57,813 nt of DNA from an uncultured Candidatus Saccharibacteria bacterium. GTDB lineage: Bacteria; Patescibacteriota; Minisyncoccia; UBA9983. The notes under the pieces are model-generated. The model did no database searches. It was not told the origin of the DNA and saw only the letters and a program-made list of their open reading frames with translations. Positions 3,001 through 55,681 of this stretch are shown one piece after another; position 1 is the stretch's first letter; every line of letters begins with the position of its first letter. Position numbers and translations under genes: made by a program. The stretch is from contig CAYJQX010000005.1 of NCBI GenBank assembly GCA_964372755.1, forward strand, positions 1-57,813, in the 5' to 3' direction.

Positions 3001-3470
3001 TGCGCAAAATCATGCACGGCCTTTTGCCAAGAATGGTCTCCGCCGTAGAGAGAAAATTTGAGCTGATCAAAAGAAGATTCCGCCCATTTCTTTGAAGGCA
3101 TGGGCTTTTGGGAGACGGAGACAAGATTAAAAACGGTTTTCTGGATAGACTCCTTGTCATAAGGTCCCCAGCGCTCTCCCGTCCATCCCTCGCCCGTTGT
3201 AGGGTCGTAGAAGTGGTTTATCCATCTCGGCTCCAAATCTTCTTCTATCGTCCCTTTTCTGATTGTTTTGACATTTTCTCCGCTAATTTTCTTGGGAGAA
3301 AAACCGTTGTAAAACTCAACGGATTCTTCCGACAAGTCGGGATGGGTAAAGGCGGGAGAATAAGCCAAAAGGATGGTAAAAAACAAAATACCTCCCAAGA
3401 CGGAGAGGATGGCTGAATACATGAAAAAATATTTTTTCATAACCTGTTTTACAGGAGAGTGATTTTCCAA
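15..3470 (-). CDS. Secreted multidomain protein: Zn-dependent phospholipase C/P1-nuclease-like domain, Pro-rich linker, lamin-tail domain, right-handed beta-helix, Ig-like domain, truncated second lamin-tail domain
   Basis: N-terminal hydrophobic segment; HFYDP, LGHILHLIQD, HTRNDSH and YEEW motifs; LVINEIAW...WLELYN lamin-tail motif, repeated at the C-terminus as IVINEIAW...DEWI just before the stop; periodic Asn/Gly/Ser beta-helix region. Confidence 0.7.
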   Translation of the reverse strand: MENHSPVKQVMKKYFFMYSAILSVLGGILFFTILLAYSPAFTHPDLSEESVEFYNGFSPKKISGENVKTIRKGTIEEDLEPRWINHFYDPTTGEGWTGERWGPYDKESIQKTVFNLVSVSQKPMPSKKWAESSFDQLKFSLYGGDHSWQKAVHDFAQGREKEGLESLGHILHLIQDATVPDHTRNDSHPHVAGDPGSPYEEWVEKHTNSRNLQTAEELIKNKVSAPVFSSVGEAFEYTAKYSNENFFSEETIGDDKYKNPLVVEVEQIDKNVSNLIGFIDGKKISLAIKTRKKGSDNFDYEYTINDPKILSQYFDFLSKRAVLAGAGVIDLFFREVEKVKKDKEAVAPPVVLNRLETFTQSILSPVGEAFRINRAYAKAKEMAQSASNKIGETVSKVLRVSGIKPQTASVLSPILSQNIVVPKNPVLLPKVSLPQKTIGDDNPLPVEEILNVPKPPDILPPSNKDKPPNPPSYFPGFGGGAPVSLDDSETEIQAEAEESPKTLVINEIAWNGTLSDPDGYWLELYNYGENEISLDEWSLVSSSSTLNIPLSGTIGAGNYYVIEWSSDDTILNLPADFITNEDFSLADISEESLVLKYREEVVDKTPPRNESWANPGFIGGVERIDYEFSGEDENNWAQADPFFSSLEDSGNSSVEGTPGGRNGRNMMVNAGREISSAVVLKSSRSPFYIIAPQNIIASGSLQIEPGVTLYFSDPDSSTCACLFAYGLVSIGEIGGEVVTIKPAEAPFFSQIRAGGFIFYSGSEGSSIKNAEIKNLKAGIETEAVNLSLEDVEAQNWRDGLSVYSGGSLSVSDSSFKDFLRDGIALYASSSLNAINSTFSGFLFGDAIGAYNNSLVSLEGVTVSSGDSLGVYSGRANILNSIFSGGLSNGISFYSSPSVVLDNVSVFGFDGAGASFYSSSADVSDSRFYDNEIGLDYYGSSLALENNSFYGNSDYGLYNGTSENLDAQNSWWGDLSGPYHSGLNPDGLGDEVYDDTDFSYWALDENFSVFSNTATVTPITDSVSPSVDNFAVLNCNYTLRTDGGCLITQNTATLSWSSTSTDISYYEIVDTLPSETILATTTSFSANINLIEGAHNLLIRAVDTSNNHGSSSPTAVEYRALPIVINEIAWAGTGATTTSDEWIAPQKLGLFA

Positions 3471-4006
3471 ACTTTGCTGTATTTATTTAAGTCAAAAATA
3501 ATCTGGCCTTTATATTCACCAGGTTTTATTTTTTCCTTAAAGCCAAATTTATCAGTCAAAATAACTTCTTTTTCAACTAAAAAAGTGTACCTAACAGTCG
3601 CGTGAGTTTCCCAATCGTTATATTCGTCGCGCACTTCTTCAAAAGTTTCCCTCGCCTCTTTCCAATTTTCCACTTGTTTCGCGAGTGCTCCGTCATTTTT
3701 CATTTTGTTTAATTTCGCAAGCCACTCGTCCTGCTTGTCCAAAACAAAAAACCGGCTCGCTTTTTCGGTGTCGCCGGCCTCGAGCGCCTCCAGAAACATA
3801 TCAAAAGTCTCCTGTGGCGTTTCCCCGCCATAAATATCGGCGGAGTATATTTTGGAAATTTCCTCGTTTGCCCTGCTTATCCGCCACTGCCCCAGCCAGC
3901 GCAGAAATGTTTCCGAAGTGGTGCCGTATAAAATAACCAGCGAGACAAAAATAACAATCAGAAACCCGATGGTGAATTTCCAAAAAGTTTTATCGAAGTA
4001 TTTCAT
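3449..4006 (-). CDS. Membrane-anchored hypothetical protein (NTF2-like fold possible)
   Basis: ORF 3449-4057; start moved to ATG 4006 (MKYFDKTFW) because the longer N-terminus lies in a repeat element; one N-terminal TM segment. Confidence 0.7.
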   Translation of the reverse strand: MKYFDKTFWKFTIGFLIVIFVSLVILYGTTSETFLRWLGQWRISRANEEISKIYSADIYGGETPQETFDMFLEALEAGDTEKASRFFVLDKQDEWLAKLNKMKNDGALAKQVENWKEARETFEEVRDEYNDWETHATVRYTFLVEKEVILTDKFGFKEKIKPGEYKGQIIFDLNKYSKVWKITLL

Positions 4007-4010
4007 GGTA

Positions 4011-4117
4011 ACGACGCTAATACACGAATAATACAGGCGAATGAACACGAATAACAAAGAAGGGGGCCAAATCTGATACTACATTAGTGTTATTGGTGTT
4101 CATTTACATATTGGTGC
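4011..4117. repeat. Inverted-repeat element copy A (empty, degenerate right arm)
   Basis: acgacgctaatacacgaataatacaggcgaatgaacacgaat...attagtgttattggtgttcatttacatattggtgcgg; matches copies at 17469, 38929, 53612 and 55162. Confidence 0.85.
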
Positions 4118-4120
4118 GGG

Positions 4121-4939
4121 TTACTTAACCGACCCTTTTTCCTTTTCTAACGTTCCCGCCAGAGCCGTATTTCCTGCCGCTTTGGCGATTTCTATCGCTT
4201 TGTCGTAATAAACAAGAGCCTCTGAATTCATTTTTGTCTCGGCATAATATTGAGCCAAGCGGACATGTAAATCCAGAGATTTGGGATTTTTTTCAATACC
4301 CCGTTTCAAAATATCATCAGCTTGATCGGACTTTTGAAGATACGAGAAACGATATAGATCATGCAGGGACAAATACGCTGGTATATAGTCGGCTTTTATC
4401 TCCAACCCTTTCATCAAATTTTTCTCCGCTTGCGGATAATCTTTGAGGTAGAAACGATACAGGTCGCCGAGATTCATATAAACCACTTCGTATTGGGGTC
4501 TATTCAGAGAAACGAATTTCCAAATCTCCTCGGCTCCTTTATAATCTCCGATATTTTTCTTGTATGTCCCCAAATCCATCCAATGGCTGATGAGGGTATT
4601 GTCTTTTTTCAGGACCTCGGATATTTCTTTGATCTTATCCGTATAAAACTTCTTTTCCTCCTCCGATAAAGAAGCGGTAACAACTATCAGCTTTGCAAGA
4701 TCAGGGGCGACCCCTTTGAGCTTGTCGGAAATAATTGTAACGAAAGGGGCACCCTCTTTGTTTGTATTATCATTTTTCGGGTCGCCTGATATATCTTTAT
4801 CTTTTTGGGAGTTTAAATTCTCCGCTTTTTCCTTGTTAAAAATCTTGATATCCTGCCATGAAAAATATGAAATACCGCCAACCACCAAAACCAAAAGAAG
4901 GATCGATAATGCCAGTTTTATTTTTTCTGATTTCTCCAT
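4121..4939 (-). CDS. TPR-repeat protein with N-terminal membrane anchor
   Basis: Helical repeats (YMNLGDLY...AEKNL; YLSLHDLY; HVRLAQYY...ALVYYDKAIE); hydrophobic N-terminus. Confidence 0.85.
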   Translation of the reverse strand: MEKSEKIKLALSILLLVLVVGGISYFSWQDIKIFNKEKAENLNSQKDKDISGDPKNDNTNKEGAPFVTIISDKLKGVAPDLAKLIVVTASLSEEEKKFYTDKIKEISEVLKKDNTLISHWMDLGTYKKNIGDYKGAEEIWKFVSLNRPQYEVVYMNLGDLYRFYLKDYPQAEKNLMKGLEIKADYIPAYLSLHDLYRFSYLQKSDQADDILKRGIEKNPKSLDLHVRLAQYYAETKMNSEALVYYDKAIEIAKAAGNTALAGTLEKEKGSVK

Positions 4940-17427: not shown

Positions 17428-17468
17428 GGAATTTTTTGAGAATTGTTTTTTATTTTAATATTTTAACT

Positions 17469-17594
17469 CGACGCTAATACACGAATGACGCACGACACCA
17501 ATACACGAATGGACACGAATGACACTAATATAATACCCGACCTTAACTTTTTCTATTCGTGTTATTCGCCTGTATTATTCGCGTATTAGTGTCG
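17469..17594. repeat. Inverted-repeat element copy B (empty) between ssb and rpsR
   Basis: cgacgctaatacacgaatgacgcacgacaccaatacacgaatggacacgaat...attcgtgttattcgcctgtattattcgcgtattagtgtcg. Confidence 0.9.
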
Positions 17595-17607
17595 GTCTCG
17601 GGTAATC

Positions 17608-38495: not shown

Positions 38496-38918
38496 CTATT
38501 TGATCTCCACCCCCATTGAGCGAGCCGTGCCAGCAATAATTTTCTCCGCGGCTTCTATGTCGTTAGCGTTTAAATCGTCCATTTTCTTTTCAGCGATTTC
38601 TCTAAGCTGAGTTTTGGTAATTTTACCCGCTTTGCTCAACGCGTTTTTTCCAGATCCTTTGGAAATACCGGCGGCTTTTCGCAAAAGATCGGAAGCGGGA
38701 GGAGTTTTAAAAGTGAGCTCAAATGTCCTGTCCTCAAAAACCTTTATCTCCACAGGCACAATTTCACCCATTCTCTCTCTAGTTCCCTCATTAAAACGGG
38801 AAACGAAGTCGGCGATATTTAATCCATGCTGGCCCAAAGCCGGCCCGACTGGAGGAGCGGGTGTGACCTTTCCGGCCGGAATCTGAAGTTTTACGATTGT
38901 TTTGATTGATTTAGCCAT
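38496..38918 (-). CDS. rplK: 50S ribosomal protein L11
   Basis: [33 protein letters not shown]. Confidence 0.99.
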
Positions 38919-38928
38919 AAAATTTATC

Positions 38929-39395
38929 CGACGCTAATACACAAATAATACGCACGAATGACACGAATTTAAATCCTTTCGGAAAAAATAATCCTTTTTG
39001 GTTTTAAGTATCTATTTCTAAAATTAACCACCAATCCTAGTTTGTATTTGGAAGCCTTCAAGTATCTAAGCATTTGATAATAGTCTTCTTTCTCGGTAAA
39101 GGGTTTGGCTTTCAAGTCCACCAATATCTTGCCTTCAATGGAGAAATCTACCTTATTAGTAGCCTTGTTGTCAATCAAGTCAACCGATATATTTTTCTCC
39201 CTTTCAAAAACCACTTCTGAAGCAACTAAAAGTTTCTCTAATGCGTCCGCATATTGGCGCTCTCTACAAAACCGACCCAATTCGTTATGAACCTTAAAAC
39301 ATAGACCAGAAATAGTATAAGAAAGCTCGGGGTATAAAATTGTCCTTTCCTTTTTACTATTCGTGTCATTCGAATCCATTAGCGTATTGGTGTCG
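38929..39395 (-). mobile_element. GxxExxY nuclease gene bracketed by ~40-bp imperfect inverted repeats (putative mobile cassette)
   Basis: Left arm 38929-38968 cgacgctaatacacaaataatacgcacgaatgacacgaat; right arm 39359-39395 attcgtgtcattcgaatccattagcgtattggtgtcg; interrupts the normally adjacent nusG-rplK. Confidence 0.6.
38969..39379 (-). CDS. GxxExxY family PD-(D/E)XK nuclease-like protein
   Basis: ILYPELSY.I.G..FKVHNELG...E.QY..AL; VDF.IE.KILVDLKA; QML.YLKAS...LGLVVNF. Confidence 0.9.
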   Translation of the reverse strand: MDSNDTNSKKERTILYPELSYTISGLCFKVHNELGRFCRERQYADALEKLLVASEVVFEREKNISVDLIDNKATNKVDFSIEGKILVDLKAKPFTEKEDYYQMLRYLKASKYKLGLVVNFRNRYLKPKRIIFSERI

Positions 39396-39397
39396 TG

Positions 39398-39943
39398 TTA
39401 TATTTTCTTCGCCTGCAAGAAATCTATTTCCACCGGCGTTTCGCGCCCAAAGATAGAGACAAGAATCTTGATTTTGCCACGCGCTTCGTCCACTTCGTTT
39501 ATTCTGCCTTCAAAATCTTTAAAAGGACCATCGGTAATTTTCACAATATCCCCTTCTTTTACGTCCAATTTATATTTCGGTTCTTCCACTCCCATGCGTT
39601 TGAACAGGGAATCTATTTCCTCTTTGGAAAGAGGGATTGGAGTTGTTCCACTGCCCACAAACCCAGTTACCCTTGGGGTGTTTCTCACCACATACCACGA
39701 GTCGTCCGAAACTATCATATCCACCAAGACATACCCCGGATAGATTTTTTCTTCTATCACCTGCCGTTTGCCTCCTTTAATTTTTATCTTTTTTTCTGTT
39801 GGCACCACTACTTCAAAAATTTCGTCCTCTTTTCCTAAAGATTCTATGCGCTGTTTTAAATTTCTTACCACAGCATCTTCATAACCAGAGTAGGTGTGGA
39901 TAGCGTACCAATTTCTGCCGGCTTGAACTTCTTGTCTTGCCAT
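39398..39943 (-). CDS. nusG: Transcription termination/antitermination factor NusG
   Basis: WYAIHTYSGYE, YPGYVLV, VRNTPRVTGFVG, KOW GPFKDFEG, FGRETPVE. Confidence 0.99.
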   Translation of the reverse strand: MARQEVQAGRNWYAIHTYSGYEDAVVRNLKQRIESLGKEDEIFEVVVPTEKKIKIKGGKRQVIEEKIYPGYVLVDMIVSDDSWYVVRNTPRVTGFVGSGTTPIPLSKEEIDSLFKRMGVEEPKYKLDVKEGDIVKITDGPFKDFEGRINEVDEARGKIKILVSIFGRETPVEIDFLQAKKI

Positions 39944-39963: not shown

Positions 39964-40149
39964 TTAAAAAATTGATAACTTTACAAGATAACTAAAAAGA
40001 AAATCAAAAGCGCCCAAGAAAATCGCCGCCACGAGAGAAAAAATAATCACCGCGATAGTGTAGTTTATAGACTCTTGCCTGGTAAGCCAACGGACATTTT
40101 TAAGCTCGCCTCTTGTTTCTTTTATGTAACTCGTTATTTTGTTGGCCAT
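39964..40149 (-). CDS. secE: Preprotein translocase subunit SecE
   Basis: ELKNVRWLTRQE plus single TM; upstream of nusG. Confidence 0.93.
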   Translation of the reverse strand: MANKITSYIKETRGELKNVRWLTRQESINYTIAVIIFSLVAAIFLGAFDFLFSYLVKLSIF

Positions 40150-43208: not shown

Positions 43209-43262
43209 TATTTCTCCCACTCCGGCTTTAGAATTTTTGTCCTTATTTAAAACTTTGAACAT
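43209..43262 (-). pseudogene. Remnant 5' end of tgt overlapping uvrC stop
   Basis: Encodes MFKVLNKDKNSKAGVGEI vs tgt MFKVLNKDNDSRARAGEI; 23 bp identical (43243-43265 = 42425-42447). Confidence 0.75.
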
Positions 43263-44583
43263 TTCGTATTTTTTTGTGGTAGCTGATGGCAAACCTGTGC
43301 GCTTCGTCGCGAAGGCGAATTAAGGTGATGGGCAAAACATTTTTAGGAATCGCGCCAATGAAGTCATTTCGCTTGCGCTCTGGCCCCTTAGCAATACCCA
43401 CCACAGGAATTTCATAACCATATTCGGCAAGCACTTCTTTCACGGCATTGACCTGTCCTTTCCCCCCGTCAATCAAAAAACAAACAGGCAGAGGCCACTG
43501 GTCATGATTCAACCGCCTGCGTAAAACTTCTTTAAGCATTCCCGTGTCCCCGCCAGTGGCTCGGGCAGGATTAGCGCCCTCTATCGTTTTTATTTTAAAC
43601 TTGCGGTAGTCACTTTTCTTCGGCTCGCCATCTTCAAAAACAACCATCACGCCCACAGCCGAAGTTCCCGAAATATTCGAGATATCATAGCCTTCAATCC
43701 TGGTATTTCGATTTTTTGGCTTAGTATTATTCGTGTCATTCGTATCCATTCGCGCTTGCCCGCCCATAGCTTCCCAGCGAAGGAGGGTATTGGTGTCGTC
43801 ATGAATTAACGCCACATCATTGATATGATTGATGGCGAAAACTTGGCGTTTTATTTTTTCGGCTTTCTCAAATTCAAGATTTCTGCTTGCCTTTTTCATC
43901 TCGGCTTCAAGATTTCGCAAAATCTTTTTCTTCTCGCCTTTGAAAAAAAGTTTTATGTTTGAAATATTTTTCGCGTAATCGGCTTTGGAAATTAAACCCG
44001 CGCAAGTGCCCGGGCAAAGCCCTATCTGATAATCAAAACAAGGTTTACCCCGCGGAGCTTCAGCAGAGTGGGGGCGACTTTCTGGATGAACGCTATAAGG
44101 AAAAATCCTACGGATAATCTTTAGCGCTTCGCGCAAACTGGATGAAGAAGTGAACGGGCCGAAATTCGTCCCTTTTGCCAAAATCCCTTTCTCTCTAATA
44201 ATCAAAACTCTCGGGAATTTGTCTTTGGTAATTTGAACATAAAGAAAGCTCTTGCCATCCTTCTCGCGGATATTAAATGGCGGTTGATACTTTTTAATCA
44301 ACTCCGCCTCGAGTATCAAAGCTTCTACAGCATTGGCTGTTTCGCGGTAATCAATTTTTGCAATTTGCCCCACCATCGCCTCAATCCGCGCGTCGTGAGG
44401 ATGAGTAAAATAACTCTCTACTCTTCTTTTGAGACTTGTGGCTTTGCCCACATAAAGGATTTTGGCATCCTTGTCACACATCAAATACACCCCGGGCGAT
44501 TCCGGCAAAACTCCATTTTTGATTTTTACTTGCCCCTTAAAGCTCTTTGAGCGAAGTAGGGATTGTTTTGGAACCTGCGACAT
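43243..44583 (-). CDS. uvrC: Excinuclease ABC subunit C (short, no HhH tail)
   Basis: PGVYLM...YVGKATSLKRRVESYF GIY-YIG; UVR coiled coil LEFEKAEKIK; RIEGYDISN; LIDGGKGQ; RDEAHRFA. Confidence 0.95.
   Translation of the reverse strand: MSQVPKQSLLRSKSFKGQVKIKNGVLPESPGVYLMCDKDAKILYVGKATSLKRRVESYFTHPHDARIEAMVGQIAKIDYRETANAVEALILEAELIKKYQPPFNIREKDGKSFLYVQITKDKFPRVLIIREKGILAKGTNFGPFTSSSSLREALKIIRRIFPYSVHPESRPHSAEAPRGKPCFDYQIGLCPGTCAGLISKADYAKNISNIKLFFKGEKKKILRNLEAEMKKASRNLEFEKAEKIKRQVFAINHINDVALIHDDTNTLLRWEAMGGQARMDTNDTNNTKPKNRNTRIEGYDISNISGTSAVGVMVVFEDGEPKKSDYRKFKIKTIEGANPARATGGDTGMLKEVLRRRLNHDQWPLPVCFLIDGGKGQVNAVKEVLAEYGYEIPVVGIAKGPERKRNDFIGAIPKNVLPITLIRLRDEAHRFAISYHKKIRNVQSFK
43730..43798. repeat. 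Single arm of inverted-repeat element (copy D) with nested 33-bp insert, in frame in uvrC
   Basis: 43735-43798 identical to 53679-53742 over 64 bp. Confidence 0.92.
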
Positions 44584-53611: not shown

Positions 53612-53742
53612 CAACGCTAATAATACGCGTGAATGAAGCAAACAGAAGAAACTGGGGCAGACGCATTGCATTATTAGCGTCATTCGTATCCATTCGCGCT
53701 TGCCCGCCCATAGCTTCCCAGCGAAGGAGGGTATTGGTGTCG
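53612..53742. repeat. Inverted-repeat element copy E (degenerate left arm; right arm with nested 33-bp insert)
   Basis: caacgctaataatacgcgtgaatg...attagcgtcattcgtatccattcgcg[cttgcccgcccatagcttcccagcgaaggaggg]tattggtgtcg. Confidence 0.88.
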
Positions 53743-53743
53743 G

Positions 53744-54355
53744 TTAATTATATTTCTTCAGTGTCTGAAAATCCTTAAGTAACTCCGGTTTTTCGTGAAT
53801 ATTGTAAATAGCCACAGCCGGATGATAGAGAGGTAAAATGTCTAATTCTCCATAGGAGGTTTTGGCTTTAAAAACTCTGCCATGCATTTGGCTTATCGGA
53901 CCGCATTGCAGTCCTAAACCGAATTTTTCCATTATATAGACCATGGAAAATCTGCCCAAGGTAGCGATTACCCGAGGCTGAATTGTTTCTATTTGTCTGT
54001 CTAAAAATGGGCTATATAAATTTATTTCGGCCGGAGTCGGGTCGCGATTTTCTGGCGGACGATCTTTGACAATATTGGTAACATAAACATCTTCTCTTTT
54101 TATGCCAACAGAGAAAAGCAGTTCGTCCAAAACCCTCCCCGACGCGCCACAAAAGGGCCGTCCTGTTTGGGCTTCATTTTTCCCCGGCGCTTCGCCGACA
54201 AACATTATTTTAGCGGAGTGGCTCCCCTCCCCGATAACAGGAAAGGATTTATTCTGAATTCTATATTCGTAAAGAGGCGAAACTTTGAGATTTAAAACTT
54301 CTTCTTTAATTTTTTTGAGTTGTCCTGTTTTTTTATTCGTGTCATTCGTGAACAT
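53744..54355 (-). CDS. Uracil-DNA glycosylase family 4
   Basis: MFVGEAPG..E...GRPFCGASG, VYVTNIVKDRPPENRDP, LYHPA. Confidence 0.94.
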   Translation of the reverse strand: MFTNDTNKKTGQLKKIKEEVLNLKVSPLYEYRIQNKSFPVIGEGSHSAKIMFVGEAPGKNEAQTGRPFCGASGRVLDELLFSVGIKREDVYVTNIVKDRPPENRDPTPAEINLYSPFLDRQIETIQPRVIATLGRFSMVYIMEKFGLGLQCGPISQMHGRVFKAKTSYGELDILPLYHPAVAIYNIHEKPELLKDFQTLKKYN

Positions 54356-54371
54356 TCGCGTATTGGTGTCG
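54335..54371. repeat. Single arm of inverted-repeat element (copy F) containing the UDG start codon
   Basis: attcgtgtcattcgtgaacattcgcgtattggtgtcg; ATG at 54355. Confidence 0.9.
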
Positions 54372-54373
54372 GG

Positions 54374-55150
54374 TTATCTGATTTCGTAGGTAATAGTGAC
54401 CGAAGCTTTCACTTCTTCCGAGCCCGGCTCTATTTGAGGAGCAGAGCTTTTTTGAATGGAAGCTCCGGCAAAATCACCCCCATAAACTTCATAAAAAGGG
54501 GAGTTCGGTGAGTTGTCATAGATACTGGTTATTCTCCCTATTTTGAATCCGCCTGCCTCCGCTATAACCAAAGCTTTTTCTTTGGCCTTTTTTATCGCTT
54601 CCGCCCTAGCTTCTGCCTCGGCTTTCTCTGGATTGTCTATAACAAAGAAAAGTTGGGAAACAGAATTAGCTCCGTTTTTCACCACTCCGCTTACCACATC
54701 CCCTGTTTTTGTGAGATCACGAATTTTGATTTCCAAAGTCTGACTGACAGTATAACCGGATATTTCCGGCGCCGGACAGATTCTGTCCGTGCAGTTGTAA
54801 TAAGGATATTTCGGAACAACATTGTAATTTAGGGTTTTGATATCTTTAGGATCCACGCCTTTGGCTTTCACAAAATCTATAACCTTATTTGCGTTTTCAG
54901 TATTCTTTGTTTGAATGGCGTTTAAATCTTTGCCACCTTCAGTGATAACACTGGCTGTAAATTTTGCCACGTCGGGCACTGTAATAACCTTGCCTTCGGA
55001 TGTAACAGAAAACGTCCTGTTGTAATAGGAATCGAGAGAATCATAACTTGTCCAAGCAAAAAACACCCCATATGAAATAGCCGCTAGAGCAATCGACGAT
55101 GAGCCGATAATGATAGAGATTCCTAAGTATTTTTTTATTTTTGGTTCCAT
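54374..55150 (-). CDS. SIMPL (DUF541) domain protein
   Basis: VTSEGKV...PDVA, GANSVSQLFF, ARAEAIKKAKEKA...A; start set at MEPKIKK. Confidence 0.9.
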   Translation of the reverse strand: MEPKIKKYLGISIIIGSSSIALAAISYGVFFAWTSYDSLDSYYNRTFSVTSEGKVITVPDVAKFTASVITEGGKDLNAIQTKNTENANKVIDFVKAKGVDPKDIKTLNYNVVPKYPYYNCTDRICPAPEISGYTVSQTLEIKIRDLTKTGDVVSGVVKNGANSVSQLFFVIDNPEKAEAEARAEAIKKAKEKALVIAEAGGFKIGRITSIYDNSPNSPFYEVYGGDFAGASIQKSSAPQIEPGSEEVKASVTITYEIR

Positions 55151-55161
55151 AATTTTTATAA

Positions 55162-55270
55162 CGACGCTAATACACGAATAATACACGAATGTCGCGAATA
55201 ATAAAGAGGGAAGACAAGATTTGGTATTATACTATTAGTGTCATTCGTGAACATTCGTGTATTGGTGTCG
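55162..55270. repeat. Inverted-repeat element copy G (empty)
   Basis: cgacgctaatacacgaataatacacgaatgtcgcgaat...attagtgtcattcgtgaacattcgtgtattggtgtcg. Confidence 0.92.
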
Positions 55271-55272
55271 GG

Positions 55273-55647
55273 TTATAAATATTCCCTCACTTTTTTCACT
55301 ATTTCGTCCAAGCTATTGTGCGCTTTCACCAAAAAAGCATCTGCACCGAGGGCTTTTGCCGAAGCCATGTCTTCCTGTGAACCAAGGTTAGTAAAAAGAA
55401 TGACCGGTATTTTCTTGGTTGCGTCGCCTACTTTCAAAAGCTTCAAAATTTCGAAGCCGTCAAGGCCGGGTAAAATGATATCCAGTAAGATGACGCTTGG
55501 GATCTTGTCTTTGGCAATTTTTATGGCTTCTTCTCCCTCCGAAGCGATAAAAACTTCTAAGTTTTCTTTTTTGAAAGCTTTTTCCGTTAAATCTCTCAAA
55601 AACTTATCGTCTTCTATAATAAGGACGCTTTTTTTGTTTTCTTCCAT
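55273..55647 (-). CDS. Single-domain response regulator (receiver)
   Basis: VLIIEDD, LLDIILPGLDG, ILFTN, FLVKA. Confidence 0.95.
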   Translation of the reverse strand: MEENKKSVLIIEDDKFLRDLTEKAFKKENLEVFIASEGEEAIKIAKDKIPSVILLDIILPGLDGFEILKLLKVGDATKKIPVILFTNLGSQEDMASAKALGADAFLVKAHNSLDEIVKKVREYL

Positions 55648-55681
55648 CTAATTTTTTTGTAAAAACAATACTATTGTATAC

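Follow-up and report, generated by a model that had tools for sequence, protein, structure and literature searches.

The nusG-rplK junction of an uncultured Candidatus Saccharibacteria bacterium raises the question of whether a small nuclease gene and the repeats on either side of it make up one mobile unit. The junction lies in a 57,813-nt stretch of DNA (assembly GCA_964372755.1, contig CAYJQX010000005.1), which we refer to as the window. An earlier note on the window had described a gene of the GxxExxY family (PF13366) framed by the arms of a dispersed inverted-repeat family, and had suggested that the encoded nuclease mobilises both gene and repeats. We compared this locus with GxxExxY genes from candidate phyla radiation (CPR) bacteria and from other phyla. 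The explanation that we favour is that the GxxExxY cassette is a semi-autonomous unit, composed of a nuclease gene of ~125 amino acids (aa) and arms that resemble terminal inverted repeats (TIRs), with the nuclease as its putative mobiliser; we put the probability of this at roughly 0.55.

A GxxExxY gene and its inverted arms fill the nusG-rplK spacer

In the window, secE (39964-40149), nusG (39398-39943), the nuclease open reading frame (ORF; 38969-39379, 136 aa) and rplK (38496-38918) follow one another on the - strand. The ORF matched the GxxExxY profile TIGR04256 with 80.7 bits (cut-off 35) over positions 1-116 of 116, and the PDDEXK_3 profile PF13366 with 80.5 bits (cut-off 22). Its family domain comprises residues 18-131, and residues 1-17 (MDSNDTNSKKERTILYP, beginning MDSNDTN) are encoded in part by the 5' arm. 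Read on the gene strand, this arm (CACGACACCAATACGCTAATGGATTCGAATGACACGAAT; 39359-39397, - strand) contains the ATG of the ORF (39377-39379) and lies 0-3 nt from the nusG stop codon. The 3' arm (ATTCGTGTCATTCGTGCGTATTATTTGTGTATTAGCGTCG on the gene strand; 38929-38968, - strand) adjoins the stop codon of the ORF and ends 10 nt ahead of the rplK start, and the nusG-rplK spacer is wholly occupied by the ORF and its two arms. Gene order, profile matches and arm coordinates thus confirmed the earlier description of a GxxExxY gene bounded by arms of ~40 nt between nusG and rplK.

The arms are inverted and composed of AYACGAAT-type subunits. Both are present as had been claimed, but the repeats are imperfect: full complementarity is limited to a 14-nt core (CGAATGACACGAAT), the outer 12 nt match at 10 of 12 positions (CGACGCTAATAC / CGACACCAATAC), with a 3-nt indel between the middle parts. 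With up to three mismatches allowed, the core occurred 16 times in the window compared to 5.7 ± 2.4 times in shuffled sequences, none of which (0/100) reached 16.

Arms accompany GxxExxY genes in CPR bacteria

For comparison, we used a set of 80 GxxExxY loci from distinct CPR species (1.13 Mb). Nearly all had a 5' arm, in which GCGAYRC is followed by CNAAT subunits and which often contains the ATG, as well as a 3' arm, from which the stop codon is often drawn (ATTCGTAA or ATTCGTAG) and which terminates in ..TTAGTRTCGC. Each arm is an array of three to five direct AYACGAAT-type subunits spaced by about one helical turn, the whole ending GCGAYRC...GYRTCGC. About half of the 120 closest homologues of the window nuclease start with arm-encoded peptides (M..NDTNK, MTHEFTNK or M(R)MTRI), which are the three reading frames of CGAATGACACGAAT.

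We then scored inverted repeats over gene ends and observed that 53 of 70 GxxExxY genes (76%) exceeded the 95th percentile of the controls, as against 46 of 1040 control genes (4%), in keeping with the expectation that GxxExxY homologues usually bear arms. A strict arm pattern, a regular expression that demands at least three CNAAT subunits, was found 202 times in the 1.13 Mb and 7 times in shuffled sequence. The distance from a forward arm to the next reverse arm was bimodal, with 24 pairs below 60 nt, 46 pairs at 300-460 nt and 2 others. A GxxExxY gene was enclosed by 47 of the 48 long-spaced pairs; none of ~1,000 other genes was enclosed. Where a genome has copies both with and without the gene (L081, L082, L031, L024, L078 and L004), their arms are almost identical, with details that vary between genomes. 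Because of the bimodal spacing, the 47/48 enclosure and the same-genome near-identity, the arms are specific to the GxxExxY family and occur in two states only, with the gene or as a gene-less hairpin. By this comparison, the CPR bacteria have gene and arms as a single unit.

In 66 of 71 cases, the cassette and the gene upstream of it had the same orientation, compared to a background of 74%. Given this co-orientation and arms that are compatible with read-through, the cassette ORF may be expressed by read-through from host signals or as an in-frame fusion.

Gene-less copies of the arms in the window

Six further arm loci had been listed for the window, and all were found again, four as full hairpins with both arms and loops of 30-40 nt, and two as single arms. 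The gene-less hairpins lie at 4010-4125 (~35-nt loop), at 17468-17597 upstream of ssb (left arm extended), at 53612-53742 between the genes for HPF/YfiA, a ribosome hibernation factor, and uracil-DNA glycosylase (right arm with a nested 33-nt insert), and at 55160-55276, where the arms are paired best (-42.5 kcal/mol, z = -8). One single arm (54335-54376) provides the ATG of the longest ORF for a family-4 uracil-DNA glycosylase (53744-54355, - strand). The other (43729-43798), a long variant that also has a nested 33-nt insert, lies in frame inside uvrC (43243-44583), and, relative to another CPR UvrC, the window protein has a 27-aa in-frame insertion (LLRWEAMGGQARMDTNDTNNTKPKNRNT) at the arm site. 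At 446 aa, the window UvrC is short. All copies in the window have the same orientation, with GACGCTAATA on the left and TATTGGTGTC on the right; most window genes also point one way, as the arm copies do.

The nested GC-rich segment (CTTGCCCGCCCATAGCTTCCCAGCGAAGGAGGG) is identical in two arms 10 kb apart (43755-43787 and 53699-53731) and is found at no other position of the window. The shared segment speaks for copying of arms within the window, and it could itself be another inserted element, of smaller size. Intrinsic terminators were rejected as an identity for the hairpins, since direct reading of the four window hairpins revealed no T-runs. In Rfam searches, the whole window gave no RNA family, rRNA included, at the gathering threshold, and relaxed E-values likewise gave no family over the arms or hairpins at nusG-rplK or at the Bacteroides, Bernardetia and Treponema loci described below.

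Sites are filled, hairpin-bearing or empty in different genomes

The cassette stands between nusG and rplK in 24 of the 80 CPR species, with identities to the window of 64-75% for NusG, 54-69% for RplK and 51-69% for GxxExxY. A NusG-centred metagenome scan gave 72 loci with both nusG and rplK (67-81% NusG identity). By tblastn, 71 of these 72 junctions were without a GxxExxY gene and only L106 had the cassette; a gene-less hairpin of the same family stood at about six (L086, L089, L125, L154, L157 and perhaps L135), and most were tight (0-60 nt). Filled genomes were scattered among unfilled ones on a neighbour-joining tree of NusG plus RplK, which is short and weakly resolved. Filled and unfilled neighbours on this tree include L073 versus L101 (3-nt spacer) and L004 versus L137 and L150 (14-17 nt), and the cassette stands exactly in place of the 0-17-nt nusG-rplK spacer. 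Filled and empty alleles, which the earlier note had suggested looking for in relatives, both exist at this junction and at other sites, including folD. On the GxxExxY tree, L073, L106 and L028 fall apart from the main nusG-rplK clade, which suggests at least three colonisations of the site by different GxxExxY lineages.

One 105-nt hairpin was found both at pilin-pilT in L082 and at nusG-rplK in L089, 92% identical with the loop included, and the L089 copy is nested within another hairpin. At folD, empty, hairpin-only and filled alleles occur at one codon. The whole cassette lies in frame between the two FolD domains in three diverged proteins, while the closest other FolD proteins are uninterrupted. 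FolD P0273 has the two arms only, in frame, and its DNA still has the codons with which the nuclease ORF begins (DEKIEE), so this allele is an internal-deletion derivative. RecG, an M50 protease and several GT4 glycosyltransferases are likewise interrupted by in-frame cassettes.

Across the genomes compared, we thus find gene-less hairpins as internal-deletion derivatives that carry the arms of the resident cassette, full hairpins and single arms copied to new sites, including in frame within coding genes, and an occupancy of given sites that varies among close relatives. The relation of an autonomous element to non-autonomous derivatives, as originally proposed, is supported by the bimodal spacing with its enclosed genes, by the matching arms within genomes and by the folD hairpin allele.

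Two further kinds of site recurred. In three genomes, GxxExxY reads through the 3' arm into an archease gene (L035 3855-4733, L060 2297-3184 and protein P0122). Archease is an activator of the RNA ligase RtcB, and the read-through could mark another favoured site or hint at a link at the RNA level. Read-through also fuses GxxExxY to type IV pilin-like proteins that bear a GFTLIE prepilin motif (L078 7395-8432; P0121, P0126 and P0141; L050), the linkers being encoded by the arms, and cassettes are repeatedly located upstream of pilin or pilC genes.

The cassette protein resembles RecB/Cas4-type nucleases

Across 60 homologues, E40, D78, (D/E)88-x-K90 and Q102xxxY106 were conserved, together with a single cysteine (C38). 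We generated an AlphaFold2 model of the window nuclease, with a predicted local distance difference test (pLDDT) score of 88.9, and compared it with the PDB by Foldseek. The model has the alpha-beta-beta-beta-alpha-beta order of secondary structure expected of a PD-(D/E)XK core. Its best fold matches were weak, namely Cas4 (4r5q, E = 9e-4), lambda exonuclease, LHK-Exo and RecB-type proteins, with TM-scores of ~0.5. Conserved motifs and fold matches together indicate a minimal, probably active PD-(D/E)XK nuclease of the RecB/Cas4 branch. The nuclease had been called restriction-like; the model points instead to a fold like that of RecB, Cas4 and lambda exonuclease. The window protein has the D...(D/E)xK...QxxxY motifs and the core fold in common with these enzymes; it differs in that it is half the size, lacks the four-cysteine iron-sulfur cluster of Cas4 and has neither a helicase partner nor a CRISPR context, its neighbours being nusG and rplK.

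A profile search of PDB sequences gave no relative of the nuclease, the PADLOC defence models gave no match at E ≤ 0.1, and PHROGs gave a weak match only, to an entry to which no function is assigned there. No relative was found in viral contigs, and so there was no sign of a phage vector. The GxxExxY/PF13366 family comprises 6,893 clusters at 50% identity, and its function is listed as 'Unknown' in a census of PD-(D/E)XK proteins (PMC3424549). Our search of the literature on GxxExxY, PF13366 and miniature inverted-repeat transposable elements (MITEs) of CPR bacteria found no description of the arms.

Related units outside the CPR

On large replicons of Bacteroides, Bernardetia, Sphingomonas and Treponema, GxxExxY genes lie between co-oriented housekeeping genes, e.g., radA-x, ade-x and fabD-x-fabG. 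Their arms are inverted and made of 8-9-nt direct subunits, with sequences unlike those of the CPR arms. The Bacteroides arm (TTCACCACAGAGGACGCAGAGGACACGGAGG) is 30 nt long and 90% complementary, and that of Sphingomonas (TTCACGCGAAGGCGCGAGGACGCGA) is 25 nt long and 92% complementary. Gene-less hairpins with matching arms occur in Bacteroides at gmd-fcl, between dnaN and an exonuclease gene, and elsewhere; those of Sphingomonas are nested in each other. By their sequence organisation, Bacteroidota, Alphaproteobacteria and Spirochaetes have analogous units of gene plus arms, with other subunit sequences. In Sphingomonas parapaucimobilis (L171 880-1150), one intergenic region holds three nested hairpins with the subunits CGCGAAG, CGCGGAG and CGCAGAG.

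Possible mechanism and alternative explanations

How might such a unit move? We propose that the nuclease would bind the subunit arrays as a multimer, their spacing being like that of transposase or iteron sites, and would cut the arm boundaries or an extruded hairpin or cruciform. Host recombination or repair would then copy or move the cassette and, in trans, its gene-less derivatives. The system would in this way be a functional analogue of a homing endonuclease, or of the partnership between a repetitive extragenic palindrome (REP)-associated tyrosine transposase (RAYT) and hairpins formed by REP doublets (REPINs), with a different class of enzyme. More tentatively, and at somewhat less than even odds in our judgement, GxxExxY cassettes may constitute an unrecognised, multi-phylum class of mobile element without a DDE, HUH, serine or tyrosine recombinase, in which the nuclease, as the only protein, recognises the subunits of its own arms, and the element spreads itself and its gene-less hairpins via host repair and can ride in essential genes (folD, recG and uvrC) as an in-frame passenger, intein-like yet non-splicing.

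Several observations weigh against a nuclease-driven mobile unit. The majority of cassette copies appear old and vertically inherited. In the close pair L009/L019, the nuclease core, nusG and rplK had reached the same saturation at third codon positions (0.46-0.48 identity) and overall identity was alike for all three, and therefore the cassette has co-diverged with its neighbours under purifying selection. The non-coding arms of this pair had identities of 82% and 97%, well beyond what the neutral rate would give (third codon positions, 47%). By this comparison, the window cassette itself is an old, vertically inherited resident under purifying selection rather than a recent insertion. We found no convincing target-site duplication at the filled and empty nusG-rplK junctions or at the nested insertion, where the flanks are too diverged to exclude one of 2 nt. 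To our knowledge, no nuclease of 125 aa carries out strand transfer, and the host would have to provide the functions needed for any movement. Within-genome co-variation of the variable subunit positions was modest (0.66 vs 0.55). No arms beyond those flanking the gene were present in a 40-kb Bernardetia stretch, and a plasmid copy in Fusobacteria bacterium ZRK30 (L167 1440-1960) is flanked by a direct, not inverted, 22-nt repeat (CAGATTTAATCCGTGTACCTAT). Lastly, non-nuclease four-helix-bundle genes occupy cassettes of the same architecture, with different arms, at three of the 72 nusG-rplK junctions (L117, L141 and L146), and the architecture therefore does not require a nuclease. Sharply genome-specific subunit codes were considered as well and dropped, as the co-variation was modest; the AYACGAAT consensus is common to most CPR arms.

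The four-helix-bundle genes at the junction belong to the protein family of 23S rRNA intervening sequences, a family known from CPR rRNA insertions (PMC11270868), and their cassettes likewise have inverted arms of direct repeats, of another sequence. They speak for a reading that we regard as possible though rather unlikely, namely that the cassette resembles an intervening sequence and carries the ORF as cargo. The arms would then form an RNA stem that joins the flanking cistrons or exons, or that is processed by RNase III as in 23S rRNA intervening sequences, and a cassette inserted in an operon would thereby do no harm; the cassette would spread by some trans-acting or host mechanism, and the nuclease would have another role, e.g., in repair, defence or addiction. 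Co-orientation with the upstream gene would fit, as would arms that begin just past the upstream stop codon and finish just ahead of the downstream start codon, and sense-RNA arm duplexes of about -30 kcal/mol are possible. However, mismatches favour the antisense strand, with 101 A.C versus 55 G.U in the sense strand, and of 47 cases compared, 32 had the more stable duplex on the antisense strand, both being weak indications from phylogenetically non-independent cases. Single arms, which are unable to form a stem, are still copied and translated, as in uvrC. The stop-free in-frame insertions in folD, RecG and other genes imply that the sequence is tolerated as protein and that RNA removal is not needed, with the ascertainment bias that only uninterrupted ORFs are visible. 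Furthermore, CNAAT arms enclose GxxExxY genes only, the type of arm being distinct for each ORF family, and no PDDEXK_3 ORFs have been reported in CPR rRNA insertions.

A different mover is conceivable if the hairpins are REP-like and are moved by a Y1 (HUH) transposase of the RAYT type encoded elsewhere, the GxxExxY gene having lodged in their loops. The closest relative, L001/L004, does have a PF01797 (Y1_Tnp) gene (3190-3879) at a distance of 6 kb from its cassette, and a second one is present in L029 (8089-8583); several arm variants also contain CTAC/GTAG, which is conserved beside E. coli REPs. Yet the window variant has no GTAG, Y1 genes occur at 2 of 81 loci with neither flanked by arms, whereas known RAYTs are themselves flanked by their own REPs, and tblastn with a CPR Y1 protein found none in the 57.8-kb window. 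The link between gene and arms also holds in four phyla despite differing arm sequences, which indicates the GxxExxY protein as the common factor, and a RAYT-type mobiliser is accordingly unlikely. We consider it very unlikely, too, that the gene is an ordinary, immobile host gene for a nuclease or regulator, with the arms and hairpins as selected operator or terminator-like binding sites. The long vertical inheritance of the nusG-rplK copy under purifying selection, the conservation of its arms far above the neutral rate and the lack of relatives in viral contigs would suit such a gene, but the comparative data speak otherwise: presence and absence differ among close relatives at several sites, one hairpin stands at non-homologous sites, copies are nested in each other, and folD, RecG, uvrC, the M50 protease and glycosyltransferases are interrupted in frame.

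Relation to known systems

A semi-autonomous cassette with its own nuclease would have its closest behavioural analogue in the RAYT-REPIN partnership. In both, one small enzyme gene is flanked by inverted repeats that are also dispersed without the gene and whose sequence is genome-specific, and in both the enzyme gene persists vertically for long, as if domesticated. The enzymes differ, RAYT being a Y1 HUH transposase (PF01797) and the cassette enzyme a RecB/Cas4-like nuclease (PF13366). A REP is a self-folding palindrome, whereas a cassette arm is an array of direct 8-10-nt subunits; unlike in REP-RAYT systems, a single long hairpin holds the gene in its loop, and in-frame insertion into coding genes also occurs.

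Like MITEs and their autonomous parents, the cassette shares terminal inverted repeats with short internal-deletion derivatives and shows nested insertions; unlike such TIR pairs, it has no DDE, serine, tyrosine or HUH transposase, and the nuclease is the sole ORF between the arms. The in-frame, translated insertions in essential genes (uvrC here; folD and RecG elsewhere) recall the Rickettsia palindromic elements (RPEs). Homing endonuclease genes are similar in that a small nuclease gene lies between or inside conserved genes, is present or absent at the same site (nusG-rplK, folD), occupies it repeatedly by different lineages and apparently depends on host genes for expression; they differ from the cassette, which has long structured arms, gene-less hairpin derivatives and no intron or intein splicing module. 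With the 23S rRNA intervening sequences of the four-helix-bundle type (PF05635), the cassette has in common a small ORF bounded by a long stem, but it lies between or inside protein-coding genes, has another ORF family and other arms, and its wobble bias does not favour a sense-RNA stem. We place the cassette outside the RAYT, MITE, RPE and homing endonuclease classes because its enzyme class differs, it has neither a recognised transposase nor a splicing module, and no target-site duplication was found. The chance that it represents a new class of mobile element is substantial.

PF13366/GxxExxY, a large family with no assigned function, is now connected with a defined cis element and, in three phyla or more, with a population of gene-less hairpins, and from the link between gene and arms follows a role for this family that can be tested. 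The link also reveals where some in-frame insertions in the essential genes of reduced genomes come from. Should the nuclease indeed be the mobiliser, it would add a further enzyme class to the ways in which DNA repeats spread in bacteria, and the cassette would be a second, independent gene-repeat partnership of the RAYT-REPIN kind.

Gene calls and other arm families

The arm sequences distort ORF and gene calls. In a mechanical ORF listing of the window, the ORFs at 3449-4057 and 55238-55651 begin inside hairpin arms; the latter, on the + strand and without a family match, is probably spurious. On a 641-nt contig (P0002), the gene call joins the C-terminus of NusG to GxxExxY. Many of the odd N-terminal peptides and 'fusion' ORFs called in CPR genomes are explained by the arms.

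Other families of ORF-less hairpins also occur at nusG-rplK (L093, L162 and L085), as inverted arrays of short direct subunits, e.g., GAAATTAG and AACTA. The four-helix-bundle cassettes at this junction lie at L117 1170-1640, L141 570-1060 and L146 1130-1620, with others in L066, L072, L074, L079 and L023, and their arms consist of short direct-repeat subunits, e.g., TAAGTT, GGTCTAAG and ATGACAAAT. A search for four-helix-bundle genes in plasmids gave mainly cyanobacterial matches.

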